Below, piece by piece: positions 6,972 through 35,970 of a stretch of 64,000 nt of DNA. The notes beneath the pieces are model-generated. The model did not search any database and was not told the DNA's origin. It saw only the letters and a list, made by a program, of their open reading frames with translations. The stretch is taken from positions 7,267 to 71,266 of the forward strand of contig LNFF01000040.1 in the NCBI GenBank assembly GCA_001464585.1. Reading direction: 5' to 3'. Every line of letters starts with the position of its first letter. Within the stretch, counting starts at the first letter, position 1. The DNA comes from Gammaproteobacteria bacterium Ga0077554 (GTDB lineage: Bacteria > Pseudomonadota > Gammaproteobacteria > Ga0077554 > Ga007554). Made by a program: the position numbers and the translations under genes.

Positions 6972-6996
6972 AATGGGCTGGGCGCCGCCTGAATAA

Positions 6997-7016: not shown

Positions 7017-7034
7017 AAGGCGCCATTTTTAGTC

Positions 7035-7490
7035 TTAACCTTCATCTGTGGCGGCAGATCCCCCTTTAGCCAGTACTTTTTCGCGCTGATACATCAGCAC
7101 TGAACCAATCCGCAATACTGTCAACACCAACAGCAAGGCACTGAGCGCGTAGAGCTCATCCGGCGTCACCTTGTGCTCGAAAAGCTTAATCATGATTTCA
7201 CGCAACACAAAAACAATCGCGGCGTCGACAATAAATGTCATGCGTAAACGCTTGGTATGAAAATACTCCACCAGCGAACGCGACAGCTCGATCAGAATAA
7301 ACAGCGTGAGCACATCCGAGATGATCTTGGAGTATTGCAGGGTAAGCTCTTTTTCCATGATCAAATCACCGGTATACATAAAAAGACGTATCACACCGAT
7401 GATGATGCCCAAGGTAATGAACAGCAACATGAAGCCGAACACAATACCAACTACCCTGTTAAACAGTTTCATTAAATCTATATTGCCCAT
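7035..7490 (-). CDS. psiE: phosphate-starvation-inducible protein PsiE family
   Basis: 151-aa 4-TM protein with the overall PsiE pattern. Confidence 0.55.
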   Translation of the reverse strand: MGNIDLMKLFNRVVGIVFGFMLLFITLGIIIGVIRLFMYTGDLIMEKELTLQYSKIISDVLTLFILIELSRSLVEYFHTKRLRMTFIVDAAIVFVLREIMIKLFEHKVTPDELYALSALLLVLTVLRIGSVLMYQREKVLAKGGSAATDEG

Positions 7491-7523
7491 CTATTTCCGC
7501 CTATTAGACTCTGTTTAGTTAAA

Positions 7524-8339
7524 TCAGGTTTGACAGCCCATACAATAAAAGGTTGAGCGCTGCCCCTGCCGCAGTTGCGCGATCGGTCGCTGACAGGAAT
7601 GGCACGGCTCACTGGCGCGGCCATACACGTTAAGTTGTTGCTGAAAATACCCCGGCCTTCCTTCGCCATTATAAAAATCACGCAAAGTGGTCCCGCCCTG
7701 GGCGATGGCCGCGCTTAACACTTGTTTAATGGCGGTGGTGAGTCGCCCGTAGCGTTTCAGCGCGATGCGCCCGGCGCTGCATCCGGGATGAATGCCTGCC
7801 AGGAACAGGCTTTCACTCGCATAAATATTACCTACGCCTGTGACAATATGACTATCCATAATAAATTGCTTTACGCTGAGCGTGCGGCCACGCGAGCTTT
7901 GGTAAAGATGCGCCTCAGTAAAGTTATTATCCAGTGGTTCCGGGCCTAAATTCCGTAGCAGCGCATGCTGGAGCGGGTCATCCTCTGTCCAGACCACTGT
8001 ACCAAAACGTCGTGGATCACGCAGCCGCAAGCACTGGCCGCTGGCTAATACCATATCGACATGGTCGTGTTTTTCTGCAGGAATGTTTGCGGGCAATAAC
8101 CGTAAATTTCCTGACATGCCCAAATGGATAATCACCGTACCGGCGCTGCTGCGCAGTAATAAATATTTGCCGCGCCGGTCTATGGCATGAATGGTCTGCC
8201 CGGCCAGAGCGGTCGCCAACTGGGGAGACACGGGCTGACGCAAGCGGGGGTTGCGCACGATGACCTGCGTTACGCGCTGGCCTAGCGCGTGGGGAGCAAT
8301 GCCACGGCGGGTGGTTTCAACTTCGGGTAGCTCGGGCAT
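7524..8339 (-). CDS. mutM: formamidopyrimidine-DNA glycosylase
   Basis: N-terminal 'MPELPEVE' catalytic signature, 271 aa, C-terminal zinc finger CxxC...CxxC ('CHSCQ...CMGCQ'). Confidence 0.9.
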   Translation of the reverse strand: MPELPEVETTRRGIAPHALGQRVTQVIVRNPRLRQPVSPQLATALAGQTIHAIDRRGKYLLLRSSAGTVIIHLGMSGNLRLLPANIPAEKHDHVDMVLASGQCLRLRDPRRFGTVVWTEDDPLQHALLRNLGPEPLDNNFTEAHLYQSSRGRTLSVKQFIMDSHIVTGVGNIYASESLFLAGIHPGCSAGRIALKRYGRLTTAIKQVLSAAIAQGGTTLRDFYNGEGRPGYFQQQLNVYGRASEPCHSCQRPIAQLRQGQRSTFYCMGCQT

Positions 8340-8342
8340 GTT

Positions 8343-9725
8343 TTATTGTCTGCGGCGCCGTACCCAAATCAACAAACCAGCGCCTGCCAATAACAAGGGA
8401 ATGCCAAACAGGAATGTCACGGCAATAATCCCCGATGCCACGGGAGACAATGTCAGATTAAGATCGGGGGCGGTTTTGATGGGGATGGCGATCAAGGTTT
8501 CGTCACGGCTCAGCCAGTTCATGATATTCATTCCCAGGTTGAGATTGCCACCGTTGCCCAAATACGCATTCGAGAGAAAATCACCATCGCCCAGTACGAC
8601 TACGCGCTGCTGAATGCGCGTTTTGTCATCGCGCCCCGTCCCATTTAAGGCGTCGCGGCTGATGCTTGCGCCCAAGGTCAATGGCCCTGCAATATCTTCC
8701 TTTTCAGTATAACGTATCTCACCGGCGAGCGGGCCGGTTTCTGCCCAGCTACGTTCGCCCGTGATGATGAATGGCTGGCTTTGCCAACCTTCGGGCGCAG
8801 TGATTTTCAAGCCACTCGCGATAGGAAAAAGTGTAATGACATTAAAGCCACGCGTGATGGCGTGATTGCCATAATCCGCCGCAAGGGCAAAGGCCGGATT
8901 GTTAATGGAATATACCTGCACGCTGGGATCAACAATCACGCCGGGCAAAAATTCCACTCCCAAAAACCGCGCAATGGGCGCCAGGCCATGTAACGAACCG
9001 GGGTCACTCAACCACAACAGGCTGCCTCCCTGCGCGAGATAACGCTGAATCAGCGTGATTTCGCCAGGCAACAAATCAAGTTGCGGGCTGGCAATGACGA
9101 GAATTGTGGTGTTGTCAGGAATTTGGCCGTGGGTTGCCAGATTCAAGGTTTGCGCCTTGAATCCTTTGGCCTCAATCTGGCGCACCCAGTCACCCAGATC
9201 ATGGTTGGCGCGGCCCTGCGGATTACGTTCGCCATGGCCTTCCAGAAACACTATCCAGCGCTCACCACTGCGTAGCAGGCGTTGCAGCGCATTAGTAATG
9301 CTCTGCTCGCTGATGTCGCGGATTATTTCTTTGCGGCCTGCATAGCGCAGCACCAGTTCACCTTCGGCGCTGACGCCTTCGTCACGCACTTGATTGGGCG
9401 CTGTAGCGGGGTCTATAAATGTTAACTGAATATCGGCTTTGTGACGCTGATAGCGCGCGATCATTTCTGCGATGGATTTGCGATTACTGTCTACTGCATG
9501 CACAAAAGCGCTTACCGTGACAGGGCCTTTGGCCTGATTCAGCAATGCGACGCTGGCTGCAGAAAGGGTGTGACGACCGCTGGCCGTCCAGTCCGCTTGG
9601 TAGTCGTAGCGCGTGCTTAGCCACGCCAGCACACCGATAATGCTGATGAGCAACACTACCCACAAGGCATTTTTCAATTGCAGAAAACGGCGTGTTTTAG
9701 GTGTGGCCTTCATAAATAAGGGCAT
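8343..9725 (-). CDS. GldG-like auxiliary component of an ABC-2 type transport system
   Basis: 460 aa, N- and C-terminal TM anchors with a large periplasmic domain. It lies directly downstream of the ABC-2 permease and ATPase genes with 3-4 nt gaps or overlaps. Confidence 0.65.
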   Translation of the reverse strand: MPLFMKATPKTRRFLQLKNALWVVLLISIIGVLAWLSTRYDYQADWTASGRHTLSAASVALLNQAKGPVTVSAFVHAVDSNRKSIAEMIARYQRHKADIQLTFIDPATAPNQVRDEGVSAEGELVLRYAGRKEIIRDISEQSITNALQRLLRSGERWIVFLEGHGERNPQGRANHDLGDWVRQIEAKGFKAQTLNLATHGQIPDNTTILVIASPQLDLLPGEITLIQRYLAQGGSLLWLSDPGSLHGLAPIARFLGVEFLPGVIVDPSVQVYSINNPAFALAADYGNHAITRGFNVITLFPIASGLKITAPEGWQSQPFIITGERSWAETGPLAGEIRYTEKEDIAGPLTLGASISRDALNGTGRDDKTRIQQRVVVLGDGDFLSNAYLGNGGNLNLGMNIMNWLSRDETLIAIPIKTAPDLNLTLSPVASGIIAVTFLFGIPLLLAGAGLLIWVRRRRQ

Positions 9726-11571: not shown

Positions 11572-12858
11572 ATGGATGATTTAACCACACTATTGCGCGA
11601 CTGGATGGATGCTCTGGGCACGCCTGCTGTGCAAGTGCAACTGGGTGTTATCACGTGCGCGGGTTTGTTTGGCGCATGGTTGTACCGTTATTGGACGCAA
11701 CGACTCGCCACGCTCTCGGCAACCTCTCCCGATCACTGGTTGCGTGATTTCTTTTTACGCGGGTTATCGCGGATTATTTTCCCCTTTGGCATGTTCCTGT
11801 TCATGGCGGTGGGCCGCGTTATCCTGCGCAAAGCGCGCATGGATGTCGAACTACTGGATAGCGTGATGCCCCTGGCGCTCTCCTGGGCGGCAATCCGTCT
11901 CGCGGTATTTATTTTACGCACCAGCTTTAATCCCACCCGCACACTTAAAGCATGGGAAGGCATTATCAGCACCACGCTGTGGGTGGCTGTCGCATTGCAT
12001 TTATTGGGATGGTTGCCGGATATTTTGAATGCGATGGATGAAATTGCATTCCACGCCGGCAAAGTCCACATTTCGCTACTTGCTGTCACCAAATTAGTGC
12101 TGGCGGTCGCCAGTCTGTTGATATTGGCGCTGTGGCTGTCTAATTTTATCGAGAAACGCCTGGCGGGCGCCAGTGATATGGACGCAGGTATGCGCATCGG
12201 CATTGCCAAGTTCAGCCGCTTCCTGCTGCTGACCTTTGCCCTGCTGCTCTCGCTGTATAGCGCCGGTATCGACTTAACGGCACTTGCCGTTTTCGGCGGA
12301 GCTTTAGGCGTGGGGCTAGGCTTTGGCTTGCAGCGCATCGCCAGTAATTTTATCAGCGGTTTTATTCTGGTGATGGACCGTTCGATTCGGCCGGGTGATG
12401 TTATTACCACCGGCAACACTTATGGCTGGGTACAGGAAATGCGCGCCCGCTACGTCGTCGTGCATACGCGTGATGGCTCTGACACCCTCATCCCCAATGA
12501 GAAATTAATCACCTCGGATGTGATTAACTGGAGCTATGCAAATCCCAACATGAGCATTTCATTGGCCCTGCGCATCAGCTATCAGGATGACCCGGAGCGC
12601 GCCATACAGATCATGCTCGATATTGCCCGCAAGCATGCTCGCGTGCTCAGTGATCCTGCGCCAAGCTGCATTTTGAAAGAATTTGGTGAGGCTGGGATTA
12701 CGCTAGAAATGACCGTGTGGATCAATGATCCCGAAGCCGGAATCACCAACGTACGCTCCGATCTGTATCTTGCGATCTGGAAAGCGTTCAAGCAACACGC
12801 CATTACGATTCCCCATACCCTCCCGCCTGCTCCACCAGCACCAGCGCCGGAAATATAA
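11572..12858 (+). CDS. mechanosensitive ion channel, MscS family
   Basis: Multiple N-terminal TM helices followed by the MscS beta-domain pattern ('GDVITTGNTYGWVQEMRARYVVVHTRDG...IPN'). The ATG at 11572 is preferred over the track start at 11500. Confidence 0.75.
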   Translation: MDDLTTLLRDWMDALGTPAVQVQLGVITCAGLFGAWLYRYWTQRLATLSATSPDHWLRDFFLRGLSRIIFPFGMFLFMAVGRVILRKARMDVELLDSVMPLALSWAAIRLAVFILRTSFNPTRTLKAWEGIISTTLWVAVALHLLGWLPDILNAMDEIAFHAGKVHISLLAVTKLVLAVASLLILALWLSNFIEKRLAGASDMDAGMRIGIAKFSRFLLLTFALLLSLYSAGIDLTALAVFGGALGVGLGFGLQRIASNFISGFILVMDRSIRPGDVITTGNTYGWVQEMRARYVVVHTRDGSDTLIPNEKLITSDVINWSYANPNMSISLALRISYQDDPERAIQIMLDIARKHARVLSDPAPSCILKEFGEAGITLEMTVWINDPEAGITNVRSDLYLAIWKAFKQHAITIPHTLPPAPPAPAPEI

Positions 12859-12897
12859 ACCCAAAAAATCCCACGCCGAGTCAGCGCAGAAACGAAG

Positions 12898-13012
12898 CCA
12901 GATTTCTCCCGGCAACTGCTCCTGCGTTGCTCTACCTTCCGCCATCCATGGCGGTCGCCTTCGGTCGAAATGACAGTGAGGCTGTCATCCCGAACGAAGA
13001 GAGGGATCTTGG
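12898..13012. repeat. MITE/REP-like nested palindromic element (family A, 'tgtcatttcgaccgaagg...cgaaatgaca', plus a 'gtcatcccgaacg' module)
   Basis: Near-identical to copies at 21885, 25775, 49845 and 57507. Confidence 0.8.
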
Positions 13013-13029
13013 TTTTTGAACGAACTTTC

Positions 13030-13266
13030 ACTGATGTCAGGAATGCGTTTCTCTACGGGAAAACCCTGATTCCTCCTCACATAATCCCTGATGTATGGGA
13101 TGAAATACCCAATAGCCGCGATGTAAATAATTTGTAACAATTTTGTCACATATGTCACGAAGCCGTAATGTTGAAGTGGTTTAAGCAGCGAAGCCCAGAT
13201 ATTTTGATGGCTATTTATTCATTAAACTCTGGTTAATGAACTTCAGCAGCGTGATGTGTGAAACAT
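13030..13266 (+). repeat. direct repeat copy 1 (237 bp, ~90% identical to 22150..22385): duplicated promoter region of the DASS transporter gene
   Basis: Hand alignment of 13030..13266 against 22150..22385 shows only scattered mismatches. Confidence 0.85.
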
Positions 13267-13362
13267 AGTGTATAGCCTGAAAAAAATAATGGGAACTGTT
13301 GACATTATCAATAATTGGGATTAAATTCCCATATAACAAGGATTGAACAGGGTCAACCACCT

Positions 13363-13458
13363 TACCGGCTTATAGCCGGGGCATAGCAGCGGGGGTGATC
13401 ACGCTCACCATCTGGTTGGGGTTGCCTGAACTCAATACGCAGGCACGCCTGGCTTTCA
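13363..13458 (+). repeat. direct repeat copy 1b (~96 bp, ~85% identical to 22489..22584): duplicated 5' coding fragment of the DASS transporter
   Basis: Encodes '...TIWLGLPELNTQARLAFIT', matching residues about 30-50 of the 22419..23990 protein. Confidence 0.8.
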
Positions 13459-13475
13459 TCACGGAGGATACTATC

Positions 13476-14819
13476 ATGAAGATCCTGCATTATTCTCATG
13501 ACAGCCTGGGGCTGGGACACATCCGGCGTACACTTGCCATCGTTCGCCAGCTCGCGCATGACCTGCCGGGCATCGGGCAACTGGTGCTTACCGGATCAAT
13601 GCAGTTTGGCGCCTACGAATGGCCGCCGCACGTGGATTGCGTGAAGCTGCCGACCCTTCGTAAAAAAACCAACGGCGAATATCACTCACCCTATTTACAT
13701 GGGTCGCTGGAAGCCGTTTCCACCCTGCGCGAGAGCATCATTCTGAGCACGATTAACTATTTCAATCCAGACCTTGTGCTTGTGGACAAGGCCCCGGCGG
13801 GCCTGAACGGCGAAATGATGCGCGCCCTGCATCGTCTCAAACAGGAACGCCCCCAGACGTTGCTGGTTCTGGGCATGCGCGACATTGAGGATGACTCCCA
13901 GACCACGCGCCGGGATTGGACACGCGGTAACATATATCCATTGCTGGAGAACATTTACGACGCCATTCTGCTCTACGGCGCGCGCGAGCTTTTCGATCCC
14001 GTGACCGAATACCATCTCTCGCCGACAATCGCCGACAAGATGCACCCGTGCGGCTATGTCTTCGGTGCCGGTGAGCGTGTGGTGGCGACGGAGTGCCTTC
14101 GCGAGAAACTCGGGCTACAGACGGAGCGCCTGGTGTTGGTGACAGCCGGTGGCGGCGCCGATGGATTTCAGGTCATCAAGACTTACCTTGAGATGCTGGC
14201 GAGCCGGCCGACACCCGCCCCTTTTCATTCCCTGATCGTTGCCGGCCCGCAGATGGCGGCTGCGGAATACAAGGTGCTGGAACAATGTGCCGCAGCGGTT
14301 GCCTCTCCGCTCACACTGAAACTCTTCACCCCCCATTTGTCGAACTACCTGCGCATCGCCGATCTGGTAATCACCATGGGCGGCTACAACACCGTGATGG
14401 AGATTTTGGGACACGGTCGATGCTCGATTATCGTGCCGCGCGTAAGCCCCCGCCGCGAGCAACTGATCCGTGCTGAACGCCTGGCGGCACGGAATCTGGT
14501 TCGCATGATCCACCCTGACGAGTTGACACCCGCACGCCTCCTGGCCGAAATGGACGCCGCCCTGGAACACAGTGATCGCGTCGATCCTGCCGGGATGGGC
14601 CTGCGCATGGACGGTGCGGAGAAGGCGAGTCGCATTCTCGCCGCGCTACTGGACACCCATGCCCACACGATGACCCACACGACAAAGGTCACACCACCTG
14701 TCCGCGCTGAGGCAATGTGCTCCAGCCAAAATTCTTCCGCAGCACCCGCCGGGGAGCGGCGCAAAAACCATAGCCAACGGCGCAAGGACCGAACTGTTCG
14801 GGACACATCCAATGGGTAA
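13476..14819 (+). CDS. GT-B glycosyltransferase (COG4671/MGT-like, GT1/GT28 superfamily)
   Basis: GGAGGA RBS 7 nt before the ATG at 13476. N-terminal 'MKILHYSHDSLGLGHIRRTLAI' matches the 'HxxxGxGH' start of GT1/28 enzymes. The track ORF extends upstream to 13395 only by reading through the duplicated transporter fragment. Confidence 0.6.
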   Translation: MKILHYSHDSLGLGHIRRTLAIVRQLAHDLPGIGQLVLTGSMQFGAYEWPPHVDCVKLPTLRKKTNGEYHSPYLHGSLEAVSTLRESIILSTINYFNPDLVLVDKAPAGLNGEMMRALHRLKQERPQTLLVLGMRDIEDDSQTTRRDWTRGNIYPLLENIYDAILLYGARELFDPVTEYHLSPTIADKMHPCGYVFGAGERVVATECLREKLGLQTERLVLVTAGGGADGFQVIKTYLEMLASRPTPAPFHSLIVAGPQMAAAEYKVLEQCAAAVASPLTLKLFTPHLSNYLRIADLVITMGGYNTVMEILGHGRCSIIVPRVSPRREQLIRAERLAARNLVRMIHPDELTPARLLAEMDAALEHSDRVDPAGMGLRMDGAEKASRILAALLDTHAHTMTHTTKVTPPVRAEAMCSSQNSSAAPAGERRKNHSQRRKDRTVRDTSNG

Positions 14820-16020
14820 GCCATTCCACGTCGGTTATGTCCTCAAGCGCTATCCGCGTCTCTCGGAAACCTTCATTGTCACCGAGATGCTTGAATTGCG
14901 GCGCCTCGGCGTGACGGTTACGATCCTGGCACAGAGAGATGCAGGCGAAACGCTGGTGCATGAAAAGACGCGCCAACTCGATGCGCCGATCTATTACCTG
15001 CCGCGCGTTTCCAGCCAGGAATGGCCGTTTCGCTATCACAAGGACGGGGTCAGCCCTGCGACTACCCTCGAGAGTGGCGGCGCCAATAGCGACGAGAGCA
15101 GCGGGCGCACCATGCTCGAGGCCGCCCTACTCGCGCCGCTGGTCGAGCGGCTTGGTATCGATCATCTGCACGCACACTTCGCCACCTGGGCGAGCGAGAT
15201 GGCCTGCCACGTCAGTGCGCTTACCGGCATCCCTTTCAGCTTTACCGCGCACGCCAAGGACATCTTTCACAACGATGTTAACAAACAGCAGTTGGCATGG
15301 AGGATGGCGCGGGCGAAACTCGTTATTACCGTGAGCGATTTCAACAAGGCCTACCTCAATGATCTGCTCGCCGTCTCCGGCAAAACCGGCCGGATCGAGC
15401 GCCTGTATAACGGCATCGATCTCGATTTGTTCGCACGGCAGGCACGCCACCCGGAGCCGGGGTTAATTGTCGGCATCGGACGTCTCGTGGAAAAAAAGGG
15501 TTTCGACTATCTCATTGATGCCTGCCGTCTGTTGAAGCAGGAAGGTCGGCAGTTCCGCTGCGTCATCGCCGGCGACGGCGAACAACGCGCCGCGCTCGCG
15601 GCGCGTATCAGCGAACACGGACTGGATAACGAGATCACGCTTGCCGGCGCCATGAGCCAGACCGAAGTGATCGCCTTGCTCAAACGCGCAACGGTGTTCG
15701 TTCTGCCATGCGTCGTGGGACGGGACGGCAACCGCGACGGCCTGCCGACTGTACTGCTTGAGGCGATGACCCTCGAAGTGCCTGTGGTTTCCACCCGCGT
15801 TACTGGCATCCCGGAAATCGTTGATCATGGGCAAACCGGCCTGCTGGTAGAGGAAAGGGACGCTACGGGACTGGCTGCGGCGCTTGCCGAATTACTCCAG
15901 GCACCAACGCTACGGCGACAACTCGGCGCCCGGGCACGGGAGAAAGTTGCGCGCCAGTTCAACACGGCCGAAAACGTAAAACAGCTCAGAGAGCATTTTA
16001 TCGTGAGCAGTGGAAGTTAG
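14812..16020 (+). CDS. GT4-family (group 1) glycosyltransferase
   Basis: 402 aa with GT-B fold cues and the C-terminal E-x7-E region ('EAMTLEVPVVSTRVTGIPE'). Overlaps the upstream GT stop by 8 nt. Confidence 0.7.
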   Translation: MGKPFHVGYVLKRYPRLSETFIVTEMLELRRLGVTVTILAQRDAGETLVHEKTRQLDAPIYYLPRVSSQEWPFRYHKDGVSPATTLESGGANSDESSGRTMLEAALLAPLVERLGIDHLHAHFATWASEMACHVSALTGIPFSFTAHAKDIFHNDVNKQQLAWRMARAKLVITVSDFNKAYLNDLLAVSGKTGRIERLYNGIDLDLFARQARHPEPGLIVGIGRLVEKKGFDYLIDACRLLKQEGRQFRCVIAGDGEQRAALAARISEHGLDNEITLAGAMSQTEVIALLKRATVFVLPCVVGRDGNRDGLPTVLLEAMTLEVPVVSTRVTGIPEIVDHGQTGLLVEERDATGLAAALAELLQAPTLRRQLGARAREKVARQFNTAENVKQLREHFIVSSGS

Positions 16021-16170
16021 AACCTGTTTAGAATCTCGATCAAGGGATGCAGCGCAAGGCAAAAGTAACCGAAAAAGCGGAGCATACACGAAGTATGTGA
16101 GCATTTTGAGGTTACTTTTAACGCCGCGATGCGCCCTTCAGCGAGATTCTAAATAGGTTCTATAGGAATT
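16021..16170. repeat. ~150-bp imperfect long palindrome / hairpin element in the GT4-GT4 intergenic region
   Basis: 'tagaacctgtttagaatctcg' (16021..) pairs with 'cgagattctaaataggttcta' (..16165). Inner arms 'aaaagtaacc' / 'ggttactttt' also pair. Confidence 0.6.
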
Positions 16171-16393
16171 TTGGGCTCACCCTATGCGCATGCTCGCGTT
16201 TCCGGAATATTTTATTCCGCCCTTTTCCGCAGGGGAGCAGACACTAACCACGGTCGACCGGGTATGTTTGTTATGGTATGGTATTGTCTGGTCAATGAGC
16301 TTCATTATCTGGCTCACCTGCTGCAACGCGACCTTGCCCTGCTGCCTGTTTTCGATCAGGTCAATCTTTGACAACCGCGAGTAGCCGTGCGCC

Positions 16394-17683
16394 ATGAACA
16401 GTAATAATCAGCATTCACGTCAAGATATGAAGATCCTGTATCTGTGCAGCGATCTGGGTATTCCTGTGCTCGGACGTAAGGGCGCTGCGGTGCATGTGCG
16501 CGTCCTGAGTGAGGCGTTACAGCGCGCCGGGCATACGGTGGTGCTCGCGGCGCCATCGTTGAACAAAGACCCGTGGGAAATTCCGCAGCAGATAAATGCT
16601 GCGCTGATGCATCTGCCGCCGTCACCCGAAGTGGCGCAGGCCGTACTCGGGTTAACGGAATTCAACGAATCGCTCGAGGTTGAAAACTCGCTGCCTGGCG
16701 AGTTGCGGCGCATTCTTTACAACCAGCAACTGGCGGCACAGCTCGAACGCCGCTTCCGCAACCACGCGCCGGATTTCATCCTTGAACGCGCGTCGCTGTA
16801 CGCCACGGCAGGTGTGCGCGTCGCACGTGCGCTTAATATTCCCTTGATTGTCGAACTCAACACGCCGCTGGCGCTCGAGCAATCCGCCTATCGCACCACG
16901 GGCCTGGGCGAGCTGGCCGCCCAGGCCGAGTGTTGGGCGCTGACACACGCCGATGCGGTATTCGCTGTTTCGGATCCGTTGCGCGATTATGTGCTGTCCC
17001 TCGGGGTCGCGTCCGAACGCGTACACGTGCTGCCGAACGGCGTTGATACGGCGCTGTTTTATCCCGCCCCCCGCAACCCCGAACTGCGCGCGCGGCTCAA
17101 TCTTGGCGATGGACCGGTGCTCGGCTTCGTCGGCGGGCTGCGGCCGTGGCACGGCGTTCAGGCCTTGCCGCTGCTGGTGGAGCGATTGGCGCCACGCTAT
17201 CCACACTTGCGCCTGGTTATCGTGGGCGAAGGGCCGATGCGGGCCGAATTGGATGCCGCCTTCCGGGCGCGCCGCATCCAGGAGCATGTGATCTTCACCG
17301 GTTCACTCCCGCACGACGAGGTGAGTGAACTGATTCGCCAATTTGATGTGGCGCTCGCGCCTTATCCCGTACTTGATCATGTGTTCTATTTCTCGCCCCT
17401 CAAACTGTTTGAGTACATGGCCTGCGGCGTGCCAGTGGTCGCGGCGGCCGTGGGCCAGATTGCCGAGGTGGTGCGCGATGGCGATACTGGCCTGCTCCAC
17501 CCGCCCGGCGATCTTGATGCGCTCGCCGCCGCATGCGCGCGACTCCTCGCCGACCCTGCGCTCCGCCAGCGCCTGGGAGAAACGGCGGCGGCAGAGGTTC
17601 ACTCCAACTACACCTGGACGCGGAATGCCACGCGCATCGTCGAACTGGCGCGCACGTTGATCGCACACCGCGCGGGCGGATGA
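16394..17683 (+). CDS. GT4-family glycosyltransferase (alternative start 16427)
   Basis: 'MKILYLCSDLGIPVLGRKGAAVHVRVLSEAL' is a typical GT4 N-terminus. C-terminal 'EYMACGVPVVAAAVGQIAEVV' supplies the EX7E region. Confidence 0.7.
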   Translation: MNSNNQHSRQDMKILYLCSDLGIPVLGRKGAAVHVRVLSEALQRAGHTVVLAAPSLNKDPWEIPQQINAALMHLPPSPEVAQAVLGLTEFNESLEVENSLPGELRRILYNQQLAAQLERRFRNHAPDFILERASLYATAGVRVARALNIPLIVELNTPLALEQSAYRTTGLGELAAQAECWALTHADAVFAVSDPLRDYVLSLGVASERVHVLPNGVDTALFYPAPRNPELRARLNLGDGPVLGFVGGLRPWHGVQALPLLVERLAPRYPHLRLVIVGEGPMRAELDAAFRARRIQEHVIFTGSLPHDEVSELIRQFDVALAPYPVLDHVFYFSPLKLFEYMACGVPVVAAAVGQIAEVVRDGDTGLLHPPGDLDALAAACARLLADPALRQRLGETAAAEVHSNYTWTRNATRIVELARTLIAHRAGG

Positions 17684-18729
17684 TAACGATGCAGCATCCT
17701 TCCATTACGGTTGTCGATCCATTCGGCATTGCGGCAGATGTGAAGCTGCCGCAGGCGCGCCTCGCGCTCGATCCGACCGAGGTCGAGCCGCAACTTGAGC
17801 GGCTTTCGCGCTTAGCAGGAAAAGGCGGGCGCGTGCGGTTGCTGGCCATCCGCGTGATCCGCTACAAGCCGGGGCGGCGTTGCATGCTCGAATACGACGT
17901 GGCGGTGCCGACGGCCACTGGCGCACGGGAACTTACGCTCATCGGCAAGATGCGCGCGCGGCACCATGCCCGAGTCCCCTGCCGCCTGCTCGATACTCTG
18001 TGGAACACGGGTTTTGACGCGAACAGCAACGACGGCATTTCGGTACCCGAGCCTGCGGGGGTGATCAGCCGGTTCAATCTGTGGTTGCAGCATAAAGTTC
18101 CAGGGCGTCCACTGGGGGATCTGCTTTCAGGTTCCGAGGGTACAGCGCTGGCGCGGCGTGTTGTCGACGCCGTTCACAAGCTGCATATTGCGGGCGTTCC
18201 GACCGAACGGCGTCATACGCTGGCGGATGAGTTGCGAATCCTGCACGAACGTCTGCCCCGGGTGGCGCAGGAGCACCCCGGCTGGAGCCAACGCCTCGAG
18301 CACCTGCTGGCGGCCTGCGACCGACTCGGCGCCGACTTGCCACCGCCTGTAGAGCACGGTATCCATCGCGATTTTTACGCCGACCAGGTTATCGTTGACG
18401 GCGAGCGGCTGTATCTCCTCGATTTTGATCTCTATTGCGCCGGTGATCCAGCACTCGATATCGGTAACTTCGCTGGCCATATCATTGAGCAGCGCCTACG
18501 CCTGTCGGGAGACTCCTTAGCCCTCGCGGAATGCGAACAAGCCCTGGTCGAGCGCTTTGTGGAACTGGCTGGCCCGGCGTCGCGGCACGCGGTGGCTGTA
18601 TATACCACCCTGACGCTGGTGCGGCATATTTACTTAAGCACATTGTTTCCTGAAAGGCGCGTGTTGACCGGCAAGCTGCTTGAACTGTGCGAGCAGCGAC
18701 TGAGCCCGTGGCTCTGCGGAAGACCCTGA
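17680..18729 (+). CDS. kinase of the APH / LPS-kinase (WaaP/Kdo kinase) protein-kinase-like fold
   Basis: 'HGIHRDFYADQVIVDGERLYLLDFDL' contains the catalytic-loop HRD...N-like and DFD motifs of APH/WaaP-type phosphotransferases. Its ATG overlaps the stop of the upstream GT4 (ATGA). Confidence 0.55.
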   Translation: MITMQHPSITVVDPFGIAADVKLPQARLALDPTEVEPQLERLSRLAGKGGRVRLLAIRVIRYKPGRRCMLEYDVAVPTATGARELTLIGKMRARHHARVPCRLLDTLWNTGFDANSNDGISVPEPAGVISRFNLWLQHKVPGRPLGDLLSGSEGTALARRVVDAVHKLHIAGVPTERRHTLADELRILHERLPRVAQEHPGWSQRLEHLLAACDRLGADLPPPVEHGIHRDFYADQVIVDGERLYLLDFDLYCAGDPALDIGNFAGHIIEQRLRLSGDSLALAECEQALVERFVELAGPASRHAVAVYTTLTLVRHIYLSTLFPERRVLTGKLLELCEQRLSPWLCGRP

Positions 18730-18731
18730 AC

Positions 18732-20528
18732 ATGAAAAAACGGGACCGGTTGACTCGCATAGTACTTTCGCACCTTGGACGCATGAAAGGCGGTCTGGCG
18801 CTCGCGGCGGTGTGCACGCTGGGTGTCGTGGCTCTTGATCTGCTCGCTCCCTGGCCCCTAAAAATACTGTTCGATCACATCCTGCTCGAGAAACCCCTGG
18901 GTTCCGCACTCTCGTTTCTTGATGGCGTGCTGGCGCGCGGGCCGCTCGTCGCGCTCGCCACGCTCGCGGCAATGATCGTGCTGATCGCGCTCGGCAAGGC
19001 CGCGTTCCTGTATTTCCAGGTCTTTCAGACTTCGCGCATAGGCTATCAGTTGGTGTTCGAGTTGCGCCGGGAACTGTTTCAGCACTTGCAGGGCCTATCG
19101 CTGTCGTATCACAACCGCGCCCGCGCCGGGGACCTGCTTAACCGCATCACCAGCGACACCCACAACCTGCGGGACACTTTCACCGAATCCGCACTCGCCT
19201 TCGGCACCCACCTGCTCACCATCGTGGGCATGCTCGTGGTGATGTTCGCGCTCAATTGGCGGCTGGCGCTGATCGCGGCCGTGACGTTTCCCCTGCTGCT
19301 CGTGGTGCTGATATTGTTCTATGCGCGCGTCAAGGCCACGATGAAAAAACAGCGGCGACGGGAAGGCAAGATCGCCGCGCGCCTCGGCGAGGTGTTCGCC
19401 ACTGTGCCACTGGTGCGCGCCTTCGGGCGCGAGCGCTATGAAATCGCGCAGTTCGAGACGCAAAGCACCAAGCATCTGGAGGAAGGCATTCGCGCGCTGC
19501 GGCTCGAAGCGGCGGCGATACGCGCTACCGAAATCATCAGCGCCTTTGGCCTCGGCGCGACCGTGTTCTATGGCGCATTGCAGGTGCTCGCGGAGCGCAT
19601 GACACCCGGCGATCTGCTGGTGTTCTCGGCCTATGTCTCGCGCATGTATAGCCCGATACGTCAAGTCGCCAAGCTGTTGCTCAAATTTAACAAGGCGGCG
19701 GTCAGTGCGGAACGCCTGCGCGAGATCCTCAACGAAGAGCCCGAGATACCCGACCGGCCGGATGCAATCGAGGCGCACGACCTCAAGGGCGAGATCCGCT
19801 TCGATGGCATCTCGTTCGGTTATGGTGAAGGGGACAAGACATTAAATGACATCAGTTTCAGCATCGCCCCAGGGCAACGGCTGGTGCTGGTCGGCGCCTC
19901 CGGCGCTGGCAAATCAACCCTCGTCAATCTACTGCTGCGCCTGTATGAGCCCACCAGCGGTGCTATTTTCGTGGACGGCCACGACATCCGCGACTATCGG
20001 CGCGAATCCCTCCGGCGCGAGATCGGAATCGTGTTGCAGGACAACGTGCTGTTCGGCGCCAGCGTCCGCGAGAACATCGCTTACGGCAAGCTCCACGCCA
20101 CGCCGGAAGAAGTCGAGGCGGCGGCGCGCGCCGCCCATGCGCACGAGTTTATCGCGGCCCTGCCTGAAGGTTACGACACCCTCGTGGGGGAACGCGGCGC
20201 GACTCTTTCCGGTGGGCAGCGCCAGCGCATCGGGCTGGCGCGCGCCCTGATCAAGCGCCCGTCAATCCTGATCCTCGACGAGCCCACCTCGGCTCTCGAT
20301 GCCAGTTCCGAGGCGCTGATCCAGGAGGTGATTGAGCGTCTGCAGCAAGGCAAGACCACAATCCTGATCGCGCACCACTTTCGCTATATCAAGCATACCG
20401 ATCATGTTCTCGTGCTCAAGCAGGGCATTATCGCGGAACAAGGGAAGGCGCGGGAACTGATGGCGATGAAGGGTCATTATTACGATCTGTATGTGCATCA
20501 GGAATCTGATGCGCGCACCCGGCGATGA
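18732..20528 (+). CDS. fused permease-ATPase ABC exporter (type I, MsbA-like)
   Basis: 6 N-terminal TM helices, Walker A 'GASGAGKST', signature 'LSGGQRQR', Walker B 'LILDEPTSALD'. The start 18732 is chosen 2 nt after the kinase stop. Confidence 0.8.
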   Translation: MKKRDRLTRIVLSHLGRMKGGLALAAVCTLGVVALDLLAPWPLKILFDHILLEKPLGSALSFLDGVLARGPLVALATLAAMIVLIALGKAAFLYFQVFQTSRIGYQLVFELRRELFQHLQGLSLSYHNRARAGDLLNRITSDTHNLRDTFTESALAFGTHLLTIVGMLVVMFALNWRLALIAAVTFPLLLVVLILFYARVKATMKKQRRREGKIAARLGEVFATVPLVRAFGRERYEIAQFETQSTKHLEEGIRALRLEAAAIRATEIISAFGLGATVFYGALQVLAERMTPGDLLVFSAYVSRMYSPIRQVAKLLLKFNKAAVSAERLREILNEEPEIPDRPDAIEAHDLKGEIRFDGISFGYGEGDKTLNDISFSIAPGQRLVLVGASGAGKSTLVNLLLRLYEPTSGAIFVDGHDIRDYRRESLRREIGIVLQDNVLFGASVRENIAYGKLHATPEEVEAAARAAHAHEFIAALPEGYDTLVGERGATLSGGQRQRIGLARALIKRPSILILDEPTSALDASSEALIQEVIERLQQGKTTILIAHHFRYIKHTDHVLVLKQGIIAEQGKARELMAMKGHYYDLYVHQESDARTRR

Positions 20529-21865
20529 GCCGTCATACAGCCATCAGCTTCATGCTTTCCGGAATCCTCGCCTTGGCGCCGCTGGGGGCTCGGGCCGAAG
20601 CGCCCCCAGGGCCGACGATCCCGGAAGGCGCGCCTGAAACCCAGGTCACGGACGTCGATACCGCTGTCCTGCCGCCGCTGCCTTTTCATCCCGCACCATG
20701 GTTATCCATGGGCGCGATGGTCAAACTCACTCTGGCAAGCGGCGAGAACGTCAGTATCGCGGGTTCAGCGCCGCCCCGCCAGCGGTCATCCGAAGCGGTG
20801 TTAACCACGGCGGCCAGCGTTTCCCTGGCGCCGAACCTAGGGATCTTTACTGCGGCCGAGCTGGTACGTGACAAGAGAACGGGGCGGTCGCTGGACACAA
20901 ATGCTGAGATCACGGTCGCCTACCTGCTTTGGAACCGGATGTTCTCATCTCCGTTCACCCTGCAGTTGGGACGCCAGCGTTTCGCCGACGAGCGTCAGTG
21001 GTTGTTCGACGAAAATCTCGACGGCGTGCGCGTGCAGGGGAAGTTCGGCCGTCTGGTGGGTGAAATTTCCGGCAGCACCTATCTGAACCCAAAAAGCGAC
21101 AGCCAAGAGATGGAGAATTACCTGTTGCGCGCCGATTTTCACTTTACCCCCCAGGATCGTCTCGGCGTGTACGCGTTTCATCGCAAAGACCCGCTCAGCG
21201 AAAACAATGATCGTACCTATCTGGGAGTGAACGGCGCGGCGCGGGTATCCGGGCACAAACTCTGGCTCGATGCGGCCTTACTCTCTGGCGATAATGGCGC
21301 GCGTCAGCGCCAAAGCTTCGGCGCTGACGCAGGCATAACATTGCGCTTCGGTGCTGATCGGCAATGGGCTGTTACCCTGGCCCATGCCGTGGGCTCGGGG
21401 GATGGCAACCGGGACGATAACCTCGACAAAACTTTTCGCCAGACGAACCTGCACGACAATGAGGCGCGGTTCAACGGTGTAACGAGATTCAAATATTACG
21501 GTGTCGTCACCGATCCCGAACTAAGCAATCTCCGCATCGCCACGGCCGGCATCGGGCTGAACCCAAATCGGCAGTATTCCATCGATCTGGTGTATCACGC
21601 CTACGAACAGATCGTCGAGAACGACCGGTTCCGTTCGGAAGTAATCCAGGATCCCAATGGAGAACAGCGACGACTGGGCGCAGAGATCGATCTTATCTTC
21701 GGTGCGCGCGTGGGCAAATATTTCCGTATCCATGGGACGGTCGGGGTGTTCCAGCCCGGAGCCGCGTTTGACGACACCCGTCGGGTGGTCTTTGGCGAGA
21801 TCGAACTGCGATTGGCAGCGTCCCCACCAAAGCCCGCAAAAGCGGTTAAACCGGTCACAAAATAA
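20525..21865 (+). CDS. signal-peptide-bearing protein, probable outer-membrane beta-barrel (alginate-export/AlgE-like porin candidate)
   Basis: Cleavable signal 'ALAPLGARA/EAP'. Alternating amphipathic beta-strand pattern rich in G, D, N and aromatic residues. ATGA start/stop overlap with the ABC exporter. Confidence 0.45.
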   Translation: MSRHTAISFMLSGILALAPLGARAEAPPGPTIPEGAPETQVTDVDTAVLPPLPFHPAPWLSMGAMVKLTLASGENVSIAGSAPPRQRSSEAVLTTAASVSLAPNLGIFTAAELVRDKRTGRSLDTNAEITVAYLLWNRMFSSPFTLQLGRQRFADERQWLFDENLDGVRVQGKFGRLVGEISGSTYLNPKSDSQEMENYLLRADFHFTPQDRLGVYAFHRKDPLSENNDRTYLGVNGAARVSGHKLWLDAALLSGDNGARQRQSFGADAGITLRFGADRQWAVTLAHAVGSGDGNRDDNLDKTFRQTNLHDNEARFNGVTRFKYYGVVTDPELSNLRIATAGIGLNPNRQYSIDLVYHAYEQIVENDRFRSEVIQDPNGEQRRLGAEIDLIFGARVGKYFRIHGTVGVFQPGAAFDDTRRVVFGEIELRLAASPPKPAKAVKPVTK

Positions 21866-21884
21866 GGCGCAACCCCATCAATGT

Positions 21885-22039
21885 TGTCATTTCGACCGAA
21901 GGCGACCGCCATGGATGGCGGAAGGTAGAGCAACGCGCCGGGCAGGATGCCCAAGTGCGGTGGGCGCAGGGATGCGCAAGAACCGCCCGGAGCAGTTGCC
22001 GGGAGAAATCTTAAGATTCCTCGCTGCGCTCGGAATGAC
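21885..22039. repeat. MITE/REP-like element, family A with a 'cgaggaatcttaag...cggaatgaca' module
   Basis: Matches 12898, 25775 and 49845. Confidence 0.8.
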
Positions 22040-22149
22040 ATGGTTTATGTAACCTGTCCCAAGTTTATTAAGCGAACAGTATTGAGGCGCAACCCGGTGC
22101 GCCATTACTCGCCGAAGTGACATCCGCTCTGCCGTTTCTAATGGAAAAC

Positions 22150-22385
22150 ATGACATCAGCAATGAGTTTTCTACAGGAAAACCCTGATCTCCCTCCCCAC
22201 AATCCCTGACATATGGGATGAAATACCCAATAGGCGCGGCGTAAATAATTTGTAACAATTGTGTCACATATGTCACGAAGCCGTAATATTGAAGTGGTTT
22301 AAGCAGCAAAACCCAGATGTTTTGATGGACATTCATTCATTAAACTCTGGTCAATGAACTTCAGCAGCGTGATGTGTGAAACATA
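22150..22385 (+). repeat. direct repeat copy 2 (promoter region of the DASS transporter); a second block 22489..22584 matches 13363..13458
   Basis: See copy 1. Confidence 0.85.
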
Positions 22386-22418
22386 AGTGTCATAAAGCGC
22401 CATGGAGAGGTAATCAAC

Positions 22419-23990
22419 ATGATCATGCCTCAAGGAGTGAGCACCTTGCCAGCCACGGGGCACCCCGGCTGGCCCTTTAAGCAACATTACCGGCTCATAG
22501 CCGTGAGTGTAGCAGCGGTGGTGGTCACGCTCGCCATCTGGTTCGGGTTGCCGGAACTCAATACGCAGGCACGCCTGGCTTTCATTACTTTCAGCCTGGC
22601 GCTTATTGGATGGTGTTTCACCACGATCAATGACACCTACATCGCATTGGTGGCGGCGATAATTCCCAGCGTAATAGGTACTGGCGCGCCCAACGAATTT
22701 TTCGAGGCATTGGGTGACTCCATGATCTGGTTGCTGTTCGCGGCATTCATCATCGCCGCAGCGGTAAGTGCGTCCGGCCTCTCGCGCCGTTTGACGATGG
22801 CGGTGGTCAGTCGGGCGCACTCTGTAAATCAATTGTTTTATGCGTTGACCGCCGCGATTATCGCCACAGCTTTTGTCATTCCTTCCACATCCGGCCGCGC
22901 GGCGCTGATGTTGCCGATTTTCATTGCGCTGAGCACCACCATCAATGATGCGCGCATCACCAAAGCGTTGGCGCTGCTTTTCCCCACAGTGATCTTGTTG
23001 TCGGCGGTTGCGTCACTGATTGGTGCGGGCGCGCATCTGGTGACCGCCGATCTGCTGCTGCACATGACGGGACAGCGTATTGGCTTTTGGGAATGGATGG
23101 TATGGGGGCTACCGTTTGCGCTGGTGAGTTGTTTTGTTTCGACGTGGTTAATCCTGCGCCTGTTCCTGAACAAGGAAGAACAGCATAAGCCCGTGCAATT
23201 CAGCGTGGCGCAAATTGAAAAGGGCGACGATAGTTCTGATCCCAAGGCGTTTTCCAGGCAAGAGCGCTACATGTTAATACTGGTGGTGGCCCTGGTCACC
23301 TTGTGGGCCACGGAACCATTACACGGCGTCAACAATACCATGGTCGCCATCGTCGGAGCCTTGCTGGCGACGGCGCCAAAATTTGGCGTGTTTTCGTTCA
23401 TGGAGGCCGTCAAGAAAGTTGAGTGGAGCTTGCTGATTTTCCTGGCGGCGACCATGGAGATAGGCGAGTCCTTGATTGAGTCAGGTGGCGCCAAGTGGTT
23501 GGCGGATCACTTGTTCGAGATGTTGCAGGGTGGAGCCGCAACCTCTGCATGGCTTGTGGTTTCTGTTGTCGCGGCGGTTTCGTTGCTCTCGCATTTGCTC
23601 ATTAATTCGCGCACTGCGCGTTCCTCAGTGCTGGTTCCGCTGGTGATTTTGCTGGGCCTGTCGCTGGGGTTTCAACCGGCGGGGCTGGCGTTCCTCTCCA
23701 CTGCGGCAGCCGGTTTTTGTCTGACGTTGATGGTCAGCGCCAAACCCGTCGCCATGTTTGGCCAGATCGAGGCGTCCACCTATACCGCGCAGGATCTGTT
23801 GCGTTTGAGCGCTGTGCTGTTGCCGATACATTTTGTATTGCTCGTGGTATTCGCCTTTTTTGTCTGGCCTTATCTGGGGTTGGAGTTTCTGCCTGACCCG
23901 ACTGCAGTTCATCAGACACCGACGTGGACGGAATGGCAACCTTCACCCGCACAGACGTCGACGGTCGCTGTTGCTATGCAGGGTAAATAA
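22419..23990 (+). CDS. DASS/SLC13-type (ArsB/NhaD superfamily) anion or carboxylate transporter
   Basis: 523 aa with about 12-14 TM helices and an internal duplication pattern. GGAGAGG RBS. Confidence 0.65.
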   Translation: MIMPQGVSTLPATGHPGWPFKQHYRLIAVSVAAVVVTLAIWFGLPELNTQARLAFITFSLALIGWCFTTINDTYIALVAAIIPSVIGTGAPNEFFEALGDSMIWLLFAAFIIAAAVSASGLSRRLTMAVVSRAHSVNQLFYALTAAIIATAFVIPSTSGRAALMLPIFIALSTTINDARITKALALLFPTVILLSAVASLIGAGAHLVTADLLLHMTGQRIGFWEWMVWGLPFALVSCFVSTWLILRLFLNKEEQHKPVQFSVAQIEKGDDSSDPKAFSRQERYMLILVVALVTLWATEPLHGVNNTMVAIVGALLATAPKFGVFSFMEAVKKVEWSLLIFLAATMEIGESLIESGGAKWLADHLFEMLQGGAATSAWLVVSVVAAVSLLSHLLINSRTARSSVLVPLVILLGLSLGFQPAGLAFLSTAAAGFCLTLMVSAKPVAMFGQIEASTYTAQDLLRLSAVLLPIHFVLLVVFAFFVWPYLGLEFLPDPTAVHQTPTWTEWQPSPAQTSTVAVAMQGK

Positions 23991-25774: not shown

Positions 25775-25885
25775 TGTCATTTCGACCGAAGGCGACCGCC
25801 ATGGATGGCGGAAGGTAGAGCAACGCAGGAGCAGTTGCCGGGAGAAATCTTTTGCGTAGGATTTCTCCCTTCGGTCGAAATGACA
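25775..25885. repeat. MITE/REP-like element, family A (complete hairpin form)
   Basis: 'tgtcatttcgaccgaaggcgaccgccatggatggcggaaggtagagcaacgcaggagcagttgccgggagaaatc...gatttctcccttcggtcgaaatgaca'. Confidence 0.85.
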
Positions 25886-27873: not shown

Positions 27874-28488
27874 TCAGGGTTTACCTTTATAGCGCAGTAC
27901 CATCTCCACCAGCTTTGACAAGGTGCTGGCCTGCATTTTTTCCATGATTTTGGCGCGGTGCACTTCAACGGTTTTGATGCTGATGTTGAGGTTGGCGGCA
28001 ATCTGCTTGTTGAGTTGGCCTGCCACGACATGCTCCATCACCTCGTGTTCCCTGGGCGTGAGCAAAGCAATGCGGGCGGCGATGATTTCGTGTTCGGTGT
28101 TGCTGAGGCGCATTTCGGCATCGATATCGAGCGCTTGCTGGATGCGGTCGAGCAATACCTGATCGCTGAAGGGCTTTTCGATGAAATCAACGGCTCCGGT
28201 TTTCATCGCCCGCACCGCCATTGCAACATCCCCATGGCCGGTAATGACGATAATCGGGATAGGGGCATGGTTAATGGCGAGTTTTTCTTGCAACTCCAGG
28301 CCGCTCATGCCCGGCATGCGCACATCCACCACCAGACAACCCGGCCTGGCGGCGTCGTAATTGGCGAGAAATTCTGCTGCTGATGAGTAGGTCTCGACGT
28401 GCAATCCTATCGATTCGACCAGCCAGCGCAATGAGCTGCGCATGGCCGGATCATCGTCGACGATAAAGACGGTGGGTTTATGATGCAT
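27874..28488 (-). CDS. response regulator, FixJ/NarL (LuxR-HTH) family
   Basis: REC domain (DD...D54-like 'VVDVRMPGMSG'...K) plus a C-terminal LuxR-type HTH ('LTPREHEVMEHVVAGQLNKQIAANLNISIKTVEVHRAKIMEKM'). Confidence 0.85.
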   Translation of the reverse strand: MHHKPTVFIVDDDPAMRSSLRWLVESIGLHVETYSSAAEFLANYDAARPGCLVVDVRMPGMSGLELQEKLAINHAPIPIIVITGHGDVAMAVRAMKTGAVDFIEKPFSDQVLLDRIQQALDIDAEMRLSNTEHEIIAARIALLTPREHEVMEHVVAGQLNKQIAANLNISIKTVEVHRAKIMEKMQASTLSKLVEMVLRYKGKP

Positions 28489-35959: not shown

Positions 35960-35970
35960 GCGTTCGCCCT

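Follow-up and report, generated by a model that had tools for sequence, protein, structure and literature searches.

We analyzed a 64,000-nucleotide stretch of the genome of Gammaproteobacteria bacterium Ga0077554 (contig LNFF01000040.1; hereafter the window, whose numbering is used throughout) and, within it, a block of six genes that may encode a compact pathway for making and exporting a glycoconjugate. The six genes occupy 13476-21865, all on the + strand and most of them overlapping. In order, they encode a GT-B glycosyltransferase of the GT1/GT28 clan (GT28-like; 13476-14819), an EpsE/WcaL-like GT4 glycosyltransferase (GT4a; 14812-16020), a second GT4 glycosyltransferase (GT4b; 16394-17683), a small-molecule kinase of the APH fold (KIN; 17680-18729), an ABCB-type ABC exporter in which the transmembrane domain (TMD) and the nucleotide-binding domain (NBD) are fused (18732-20528), and an outer-membrane beta-barrel of the Alginate_exp (AlgE) family (20525-21865). 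The same six genes had been listed in a preliminary description of this DNA, made from its letters and open reading frames (ORFs). The listed positions are correct to the base, and an independent gene call on the source contig (317-kb; metagenome record AADWTP_10000019, JGI 3300002461) gives identical products of 447, 402, 429, 349, 598 and 446 amino acids (aa). At four of the five junctions (14812/14819, 17680/17683, 18729/18732 and 20525/20528) the start and stop codons overlap or almost abut. The GT4a start overlaps the GT28-like gene by 8 nt, and the barrel gene begins with an ATGA that overlaps the stop of the ABC gene; the operon genes are thus translationally coupled. The sole intergenic gap lies between GT4a and GT4b (16021-16393; about 375 bp).

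This gene arrangement recurs in dozens of unrelated genomes, far beyond chance. No gene of the module is better conserved than KIN. It has more than 1,400 homologs in the protein database, and among the matches listed 120 share 54-100% identity with it. A profile search covering 1.84 billion representatives returned 998 kinase clusters (clustered at 50% identity; E<=1e-30). We scanned one genome per species and obtained 151 loci, of which the best 80 were kept; across related loci the kinase is 49-68% identical. The record titles place these loci in Gamma-, Beta- and Deltaproteobacteria, Rubrobacteraceae, Gaiellaceae, Rokubacteria, Chloroflexia, Anaerolineae, Limnocylindria, Nitrospirota, Nitrospinaceae, Verrucomicrobiota, Cyanobacteria, Acidobacteriota, Gemmatimonadota, Rhodothermales and Planctomycetaceae. 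An archaeal copy lies on a 721-kb contig of Candidatus Methanoperedens nitroreducens, with a kinase that is 54% identical to ours. To count co-occurrence we took the 42 kinase-anchored loci with at least 6.5 kb of sequence upstream and at least 3.5 kb downstream. The ABC exporter is present in 41 of these, GT4b in 40, the GT28-like gene in 37 and GT4a in 35, and a second, longer APH kinase (KIN2) accompanies KIN in at least 22. Starting reciprocally from the GT28-like protein, we find a Chloroflexi contig with the order GT28-GT4-APH-GT4~APH-ABC (a tilde marks a fusion) and a Candidatus Nitrotoga contig with the variant order GT28-GT28-GT4-APH.

The module's genes also fuse with one another, and the kinase is joined in this way to every class of partner. 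GT4~KIN fusions are found in 13 loci, KIN2~KIN in 10 and KIN~GT28 in 5; a sulfotransferase is joined to both kinases in one locus (sulfotransferase~KIN2~KIN, L083) and to the second kinase in another (sulfotransferase~KIN2, L014). Four examples of fusions were confirmed with Pfam. Among the 150 best representatives of this kinase family, most have a length of about 745-840 aa, with KIN as the C-terminal domain. A stand-alone KIN without KIN2, as in the window, is the minority layout and is common to Candidatus Tenderia (L005) and a gammaproteobacterial metagenome-assembled genome (MAG; L006). The six genes form a real functional unit. The preliminary description had proposed a self-contained unit for synthesis and export of a glycan or glycolipid and had named co-occurrence across genomes as a check; both the counts and the fusions support this proposal, since the genes travel together and do not behave as separately conserved functions.

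The block is also accessory. L087, a metagenome contig of a close relative that shares 88-95% nucleotide identity with the window, joins both flanks directly and lacks the six genes: its order is ABC-2 transporter, MscS, one intergenic region, Na/sulfate-family symporter and glycerate kinase. Relative to this contig the window holds about 8.9 kb of extra DNA, bracketed by a 238-bp direct repeat of which L087 has a single copy. The left copy lies at 13037-13271 and the right copy at 22156-22390, immediately upstream of the symporter gene (22419); in a BLASTN comparison of 12800-13500 with 21800-22500 they match at 213/238 positions (89%) in the same orientation. The repeated sequence corresponds to the 5' part of the symporter gene. 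Because a close relative has an empty site and the block is bracketed by a direct repeat, we agree with the earlier use of the term island; the difference between the window and L087 fits either an insertion here or a deletion between the repeats in the relative. Base composition is a weak, suggestive signal (GC content of 0.59-0.63 in the six genes against a window mean of 0.544, with two unrelated window genes reaching 0.61), and the island call rests on the empty-site contig.

We next consider the individual proteins, none of which reaches any NCBIfam equivalog cut-off. The first enzyme is a GT-B glycosyltransferase as previously described (Pfam Glyco_tran_28_C, 43.7 bits), but its assignment to COG4671 or to the MurG equivalog (GT28) did not hold. 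By profile and structural matches it is MurG/Alg13-14-like, and its structural neighbors are GT1 enzymes, MurG and MGD1. These enzymes act on lipophilic or lipid-linked acceptors. We propose that the GT28-like enzyme puts the first sugar on an acceptor. The next two glycosyltransferases had been called retaining GT4 enzymes, and both carry the Glycos_transf_1 and Glyco_transf_4 domains of CAZy family GT4 (Pfam, 1e-14 to 1e-41). GT4a (Glycos_transf_1, 140.5 bits) matches the NCBIfam models EpsE (199 bits) and WcaL (150 bits), both below cut-off. Its best PDB sequence match is 2jjm (68 bits), which like 3mbo is annotated only as a group 1 glycosyltransferase, and it scores 54.7 bits against the named BshA 5d00. 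GT4b (Glycos_transf_1, 110.6 bits; Glyco_transf_4, 81 bits) is 53-80% identical to the kinase-adjacent copies in related loci. It may start at 16394 (429 aa) or at an ATG at 16427 (418 aa) as in its close relatives, and the 418-aa form is the cluster representative. Its NCBIfam match, stp3, is below cut-off (170 bits). In the PDB its best sequence match is 6kih (86 bits), deposited as 'Tll1590 protein' and described as a sucrose-phosphate synthase, followed by the alpha-maltose-1-phosphate synthase 6tvp (75 bits), 3c4q (68) and PimA (61). Sucrose-phosphate synthase and alpha-maltose-1-phosphate synthase are GT4 enzymes that use small phosphorylated acceptors. The PDB scores of both GT4 enzymes are low and give hints at most; taken as such, the relatives of GT4b would fit an acceptor made by the kinase.

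A GT28-type enzyme followed by a GT4 enzyme is the pairing known from galactolipid synthesis (MGD1 with DGD1/2), which together with synthesis of the lipoteichoic acid anchor glycolipid (UgtP/YpfP with LtaA) is among the closest known systems. This raises the possibility that the product is an anionic glycolipid retained in the membrane. The GT28-like enzyme would glycosylate diacylglycerol (archaeol in the archaeon) or polyprenol in the manner of MGD1 or UgtP/YpfP, the GT4 enzymes would extend the glycolipid in the manner of DGD1/2, the kinase would phosphorylate the head group, and the ABC protein would flip the lipid to the outer leaflet, leaving the barrel with an accessory role or none. 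The lipid-type relatives of the first glycosyltransferase are consistent with such a pathway. In contrast, the closest solved relatives of GT4b include users of small soluble phosphorylated acceptors. The module also moves between bacteria and an archaeon, which build their lipids on different backbones, and the archaeal kinase nevertheless keeps 54% identity.

KIN had been described as an APH/WaaP-like kinase. The APH part stands: the protein matches PF01636 above cut-off (42.8 bits) and has the bilobal small-molecule kinase fold of the APH/choline-kinase-like group. The WaaP part does not, as Pfam gives no match to PF06293 (WaaP/Kdo kinase). The catalytic-loop Asp, the metal-binding Asp and the beta3 Lys are invariant, and the enzyme looks competent. 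An APH-fold kinase beside a GT4 enzyme related to alpha-maltose-1-phosphate synthase recalls the maltokinase Mak/Pep2 and GlgM. The six genes might then belong to cytoplasmic sugar-phosphate, compatible-solute or alpha-glucan metabolism, with the ABC exporter and the barrel as accidental neighbors; the preliminary description had named a maltokinase acting on cytoplasmic alpha-glucan as the result that would overturn its proposal. The best PDB matches of GT4b are in keeping with this idea. However, KIN has no sequence-level match to maltokinase and is no more similar to it than to a dozen other APH-fold kinases, the genes conserved around it include no GlgE, TreS, GlgB or phosphatase, and the exporter is both the kinase's most constant partner (41 of the 42 loci) and translationally coupled to it here. 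We consider a purely cytoplasmic role very unlikely.

A different role for the kinase comes from its sole NCBIfam match, the class V lanthipeptide kinase LxmK (39 bits; cut-off, 315). Peptides are also among the substrates of ABCB exporters, and the operon could on these grounds make a glycosylated and phosphorylated peptide akin to the ribosomally synthesized and post-translationally modified peptides. The similarity to LxmK is confined to the shared catalytic core, though, and no precursor peptide gene, dehydratase/cyclase partner or peptidase domain is conserved with the module. The small ORFs of the gap at 16021-16393 are not conserved either, and this gap is much shorter in L005 and L006. 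We give this reading almost no credence.

The fifth protein is, as expected, a fused exporter of the MsbA fold class (ABCB, type IV; ABC_membrane PF00664, 158 bits over residues 23-305; ABC_tran PF00005, 134 bits over residues 371-520), and its membrane domain contains conserved charged residues. Its NCBIfam scores all fall short of the respective cut-offs: MsbA_rel TIGR02204 (435/780), MsbA TIGR02203 (423/602), HepA (420/725), the glucan exporter model NF010178 (360/733), NF008381 (357/867) and PglK (198/1000). The protein shares the fold class of MsbA but is below every MsbA cut-off, and it is not an MsbA orthologue. The PDB sequence matches (300-344 bits) are to generic ABCB proteins, among them TM_0288 and Sav1866, the closest half-transporters (about 343 bits), and MsbA. 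In some Chloroflexia the exporter is longer: a copy at 5470-8580 of locus L015 is fused to a WD40 domain, an approximately 400-residue C-terminal beta-propeller after the NBD. This fusion was verified with Pfam for L015 only; the exporter ORFs of L034, L036 and L062 are similarly long, as judged by ORF length.

Glycosyltransferases, a kinase and an MsbA-like pump together had suggested the logic of lipopolysaccharide (LPS) core assembly, in which WaaG-type GT4 enzymes and WaaP decorate a host glycolipid that MsbA flips. The operon does resemble this system in having cytoplasmic GT-B enzymes, a sugar kinase and an ABCB-type flippase, and MsbA models are among the top matches of the ABC protein. 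This match of gene classes is superficial. The exporter scores below the MsbA cut-offs, and there are no Kdo- or heptosyl-transferases; their absence had been remarked before, and we find neither these nor an alginate gene or other glycan gene among the other typed ORFs of the window. Organisms devoid of LPS (Rubrobacteraceae, Chloroflexota and Methanoperedens) carry the module as well, so the likeness is an analogy only. Modification of the LPS core or of another envelope glycan on the WaaG/WaaP/MsbA plan is highly improbable.

Closer parallels are the Campylobacter Pgl system with PglK, Helicobacter Wzk, and NdvA/ChvA, where GT4 enzymes likewise work with a half-size exporter of the ABCB class, which carries the completed glycan across the inner membrane. 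In the first two, the glycan is lipid-linked, and a pathway of this kind would have our glycosyltransferases extend a housekeeping polyprenyl-diphosphate-sugar, the ABC protein flip it, and a ligase or oligosaccharyltransferase encoded elsewhere attach the glycan to protein, LPS or cell wall. The MurG/Alg13-14-like first glycosyltransferase, the weak matches of GT4a and GT4b to PglH, PglJ and PglA-type enzymes and the 198 bits on the PglK model are in line with this. Yet that score is far below the cut-off of 1000 and also below the MsbA-like scores, and no phosphoglycosyl transferase, oligosaccharyltransferase or ligase is conserved beside the module in the 80 loci. A dedicated outer-membrane channel is foreign to such pathways, and an island that relied on host ligases would be poorly portable across at least 14 phyla. 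We regard a Pgl- or Wzk-type pathway as unlikely. As a group, the Pgl, Wzk and NdvA systems differ from the operon in that they have no dedicated kinases, while the operon lacks a priming transferase, an oligosaccharyltransferase and an NdvB-type synthase.

The best evidence on the fate of the product comes from the last gene. The preliminary description had called it a signal-peptide, AlgE-like barrel and had proposed a Pfam test, which the protein passes with 93 bits on PF13372 (cut-off 25.2), the match spanning positions 2-385 of a profile of 395. Read by eye, the N-terminal sequence looks like a signal peptide (MSRHTAISFMLSGILALAPLGARA/EA). In the PDB the protein matches AlgE alone (3e-10), with low and local similarity (residues 262-400). 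In Pseudomonas, AlgE is the outer-membrane exit for an anionic sugar polymer, and we propose the same role for the operon barrel, a full-length member of AlgE's family. The alginate system itself is different: no Alg8/Alg44 synthase and no AlgK, AlgX, AlgG or AlgL is present among the typed window ORFs, and the operon pairs its barrel with an ABC exporter where the alginate system has a synthase complex.

Comparison across hosts shows that the outer-membrane gene varies with envelope type. An Alginate_exp barrel ends the operon in the window and in 10 loci from Proteobacteria and Nitrospirota, and all six barrels tested (L005, L022, L055, L070, L078 and L081) score 90-122 bits on PF13372. In three cyanobacterial loci the same position is taken by a carbohydrate porin of the OprB family, which in L074 also carries an SLH domain. 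In five loci from Acidobacteria and Gemmatimonadetes it is taken by a 334-aa signal-peptide protein whose only matches, to OMP and PEP-CTERM/EpsL outer-membrane proteins, are sub-threshold; tentatively, this is a third outer-membrane family. We found no outer-membrane gene in the loci from Rubrobacteraceae, Chloroflexota (Chloroflexia, Limnocylindria) or Methanoperedens. These organisms have a single membrane. A product that crosses the envelope predicts just such variation, and the repeated recruitment of different carbohydrate-type channels to one position argues that the product has to cross the outer membrane, in support of the earlier suggestion that it leaves the cell. For the membrane-retained glycolipid introduced above, this is a difficulty, because the recruited genes encode channels linked to hydrophilic carbohydrates (AlgE family, OprB; the EpsL-like family sub-threshold) and none belongs to a lipid transporter family. 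On the other side of the balance, several ABCB matches are lipid transporters (MsbA, ABCB4), the operon encodes no periplasmic partner, and many double-membraned hosts have no barrel beside the module. Weighing these points, we consider a retained glycolipid possible but doubtful.

In Verrucomicrobia (L019, L038, L048, L059, L066, L071 and others) three conserved genes lie downstream of the kinase. One, on the opposite strand, encodes a secreted repeat protein of about 684 aa; the others encode a DUF1559/N-methyl pseudopilin-like protein and a protein of 218 aa that matches no family. None of the three is a barrel.

Accessory genes of the variant modules suggest an anionic sugar product. Sulfotransfer_3 genes accompany the module in Rubrobacteraceae, Anaerolineae, Nitrospiria, Rhodothermales and Planctomycetaceae, a UDP-glucose dehydrogenase in Limnocylindria, a nucleotide-sugar dehydrogenase in the E. 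coli plasmid copy described below and a metallophosphoesterase in Chloroflexia. In a Candidatus Nitrotoga MAG (L091, 8694-11846), which has two GT28-like paralogues, the module GT4 is fused to a heparinase II/III-like domain of polysaccharide lyase/epimerase type, a family assignment that hints at uronic-acid chemistry in this variant. Two-component systems often adjoin module copies. The histidine kinase and response regulator of the window (27874-30172) resemble the systems beside other copies only generically, and we do not connect them with the module.

Module copies are also found on plasmids. A complete but divergent copy (L085, 3251-13429; plasmid NZ_CP042296.1, 32389-42567) is present in E. 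coli, in the order GT28, GT4, GT4, ABC, KIN2, KIN, Alginate_exp and nucleotide-sugar dehydrogenase, with proteins 29-41% identical to those of the window. It occurs in 18 of 5,426 complete genomes, always on large plasmids (IncF) most of which are typed as conjugative, and the copies are at least 99% identical to one another. An S6-family (SPATE-type) peptidase gene adjoins it. A second plasmid, from Paracoccus aestuarii, carries another module copy beside a transposase. Distant kinase homologues (23-25% identity) lie on the Candidatus Manganitrophus sp. plasmids CP114557.1, CP114560.1 and CP114562.1 from an activated carbon metagenome, and one contig carrying the window's kinase has the same activated-carbon source label.

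Taking the gene families as a guide, we propose that the six genes are a horizontally acquired operon that makes and exports a short phosphorylated glycoconjugate, a reading that we hold at a probability of roughly 0.6. The GT28-like enzyme, an inverting GT1/GT28-type transferase, would add the first sugar to an acceptor at the cytoplasmic face of the inner membrane, and the two retaining GT4 enzymes would lengthen the chain to about three sugars; the operon encodes no polymerase, chain-length regulator or ABC-2 type transporter. KIN would place a phosphate on a sugar hydroxyl, which could belong to the not yet glycosylated acceptor or to the glycan during or after its assembly, and in other lineages the second kinase and the sulfotransferases may add further anionic groups. 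The ABCB exporter, predicted to act as a homodimer, would carry the product across the inner membrane, and the AlgE-family barrel would pass the anionic product across the outer membrane. By analogy, the operon would work most like the ABCB-exporter-dependent glycoconjugate pathways, with dedicated APH-type kinases and a host-specific outer-membrane exit added.

As to the form of the product, we tentatively prefer, at a little under even odds, an anionic oligosaccharide, soluble or loosely attached, that the cell releases. Three observations slightly favor this: the channel families that have been recruited, the portability of the module into an archaeon, and the relatives of GT4b with phosphorylated small acceptors. 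The GT1/GT28-type first enzyme points the other way, suggesting a lipid-like acceptor. Export of soluble glycans by the ABCB class also has, to our knowledge, few precedents, namely NdvA/ChvA (the operon exporter scores 360 bits on the corresponding NF010178 model). Other points weigh against our proposal as a whole. Its biochemical steps follow from family membership, with scores below all curated equivalog cut-offs, and the solved ABCB exporters matched in the PDB mostly carry drug- or lipid-transporter annotations. The genes conserved with the module include no priming enzyme, acyltransferase, ligase or nucleotide-sugar gene, and no periplasmic adaptor that could carry the product to the barrel. 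All Verrucomicrobia loci and about half of the cyanobacterial loci lack an adjacent barrel, though these hosts are double-membraned. Finally, the loci were picked through the kinase and by similarity rank, ORF calling was crude, and several MAG taxonomic labels are doubtful.

Several smaller features lie within and around the island. The gap between GT4a and GT4b opens with a nested palindrome that is single-copy in the window (16018-16162; 145 nt; 29-nt arms 90% complementary, with inner 16-nt arms) and that begins at the GT4a stop codon. The remainder (16163-16393) holds a 66-aa (+) or 72-aa (-) ORF, depending on the gene caller, and a sigma-54-like TGGCTCACCTGCTGCA at 16310-16325 upstream of GT4b; a scan with the sigma-54 promoter pattern gave 37 matches against 28 expected. 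In L005 and L006, the closest genome loci, the gap is about 90 bp as estimated from ORF starts and lengths. The stretch at 16018-16393 may represent a small inserted element, or it may act as an internal terminator or promoter. About 150 nt upstream of the GT28-like gene, within island-specific sequence, a consensus scan finds a sigma-70-like promoter candidate (TTGACA-17-TAAATT, 10/12; 13299-13327, + strand); sigma-70-like sites in the region are not above the shuffled expectation, and we treat this one as a candidate only. Rfam gave no credible RNA over 12500-22500. PADLOC matched no non-ABC gene to a defense system and returned only the generic ATPase similarity of the ABC NBD.

A repetitive extragenic palindromic (REP)-like element with the core CTACCTTCCGCCATCCATGGCGGTCGCCTTCGG and a short hairpin is native to this genome. 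Four copies occur in the window, in both orientations (12924-12975, 21885-21936, 25786-25818 and 49856-49888; 4 against 0 expected in a pattern search). Two are near the island borders, one just to the left and one just after the last gene; the intergenic copy at 21885-21936 (- strand) is a perfect 52-nt inverted copy of that at 12924-12975 (BLASTN). Two 149-aa ORFs, 12582-13031 (-) and 21887-22336 (-), overlap these elements, and the right one also overlaps the direct repeat. One of the two was called as a gene on the source contig, but they have no family matches and are probably spurious.

Elsewhere in the window, the typed ORFs include urease, a urea-type ABC transporter, succinate dehydrogenase flavoprotein, fumarase, fpg and MscS. 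The region 33367-47425 holds a urea ABC-transporter-like set, ureC, ureF, ureD and a 767-aa phytase-like protein (39722-42025), and its urea genes would fit a urea-using organism. A second ABCB-type exporter (31476-33194, -), which is 27-29% identical to the module exporters and unrelated to the island, is adjoined by a 328-aa ORF without a family match.

The enzyme classes of this module are ordinary; the breadth of its distribution, the conservation of its kinase and the absence of a known product are not. The preliminary description could not match the genes to a named cluster, and we too found no curated family, solved structure or paper describing the system (the full-text literature searches covered work outside subscription journals). 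We put at even odds that the module represents a large, mobile and undescribed pathway family, spanning at least 14 bacterial phyla, one archaeon and conjugative E. coli plasmids, that makes a new class of small exported anionic glycoconjugates with an approximately tri-saccharide core, phosphate added by dedicated APH-type kinases, sulfate in some lineages and an outer-membrane exit supplied by the host. The 49-68% identity of the kinase across hosts points to strong constraint and frequent transfer, and hence to a function that is useful in many envelopes; surface charge, metal binding, biofilm matrix and protection are candidates. The hosts include nitrifier-associated drinking-water bacteria, soil Chloroflexota and Rubrobacteraceae, Verrucomicrobia, cyanobacteria, a methane-oxidizing archaeon and E. 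coli plasmids associated with food and cattle, the last of which provide a cultured host in which the question is directly testable. If our proposal is correct, an exported glycoconjugate made by a compact and portable module of five to seven genes has gone unnoticed, substrates would be defined for two uncharacterized families of APH-fold kinases, and AlgE-family channels would gain a second context in which they are fed by an ABC exporter instead of a synthase.

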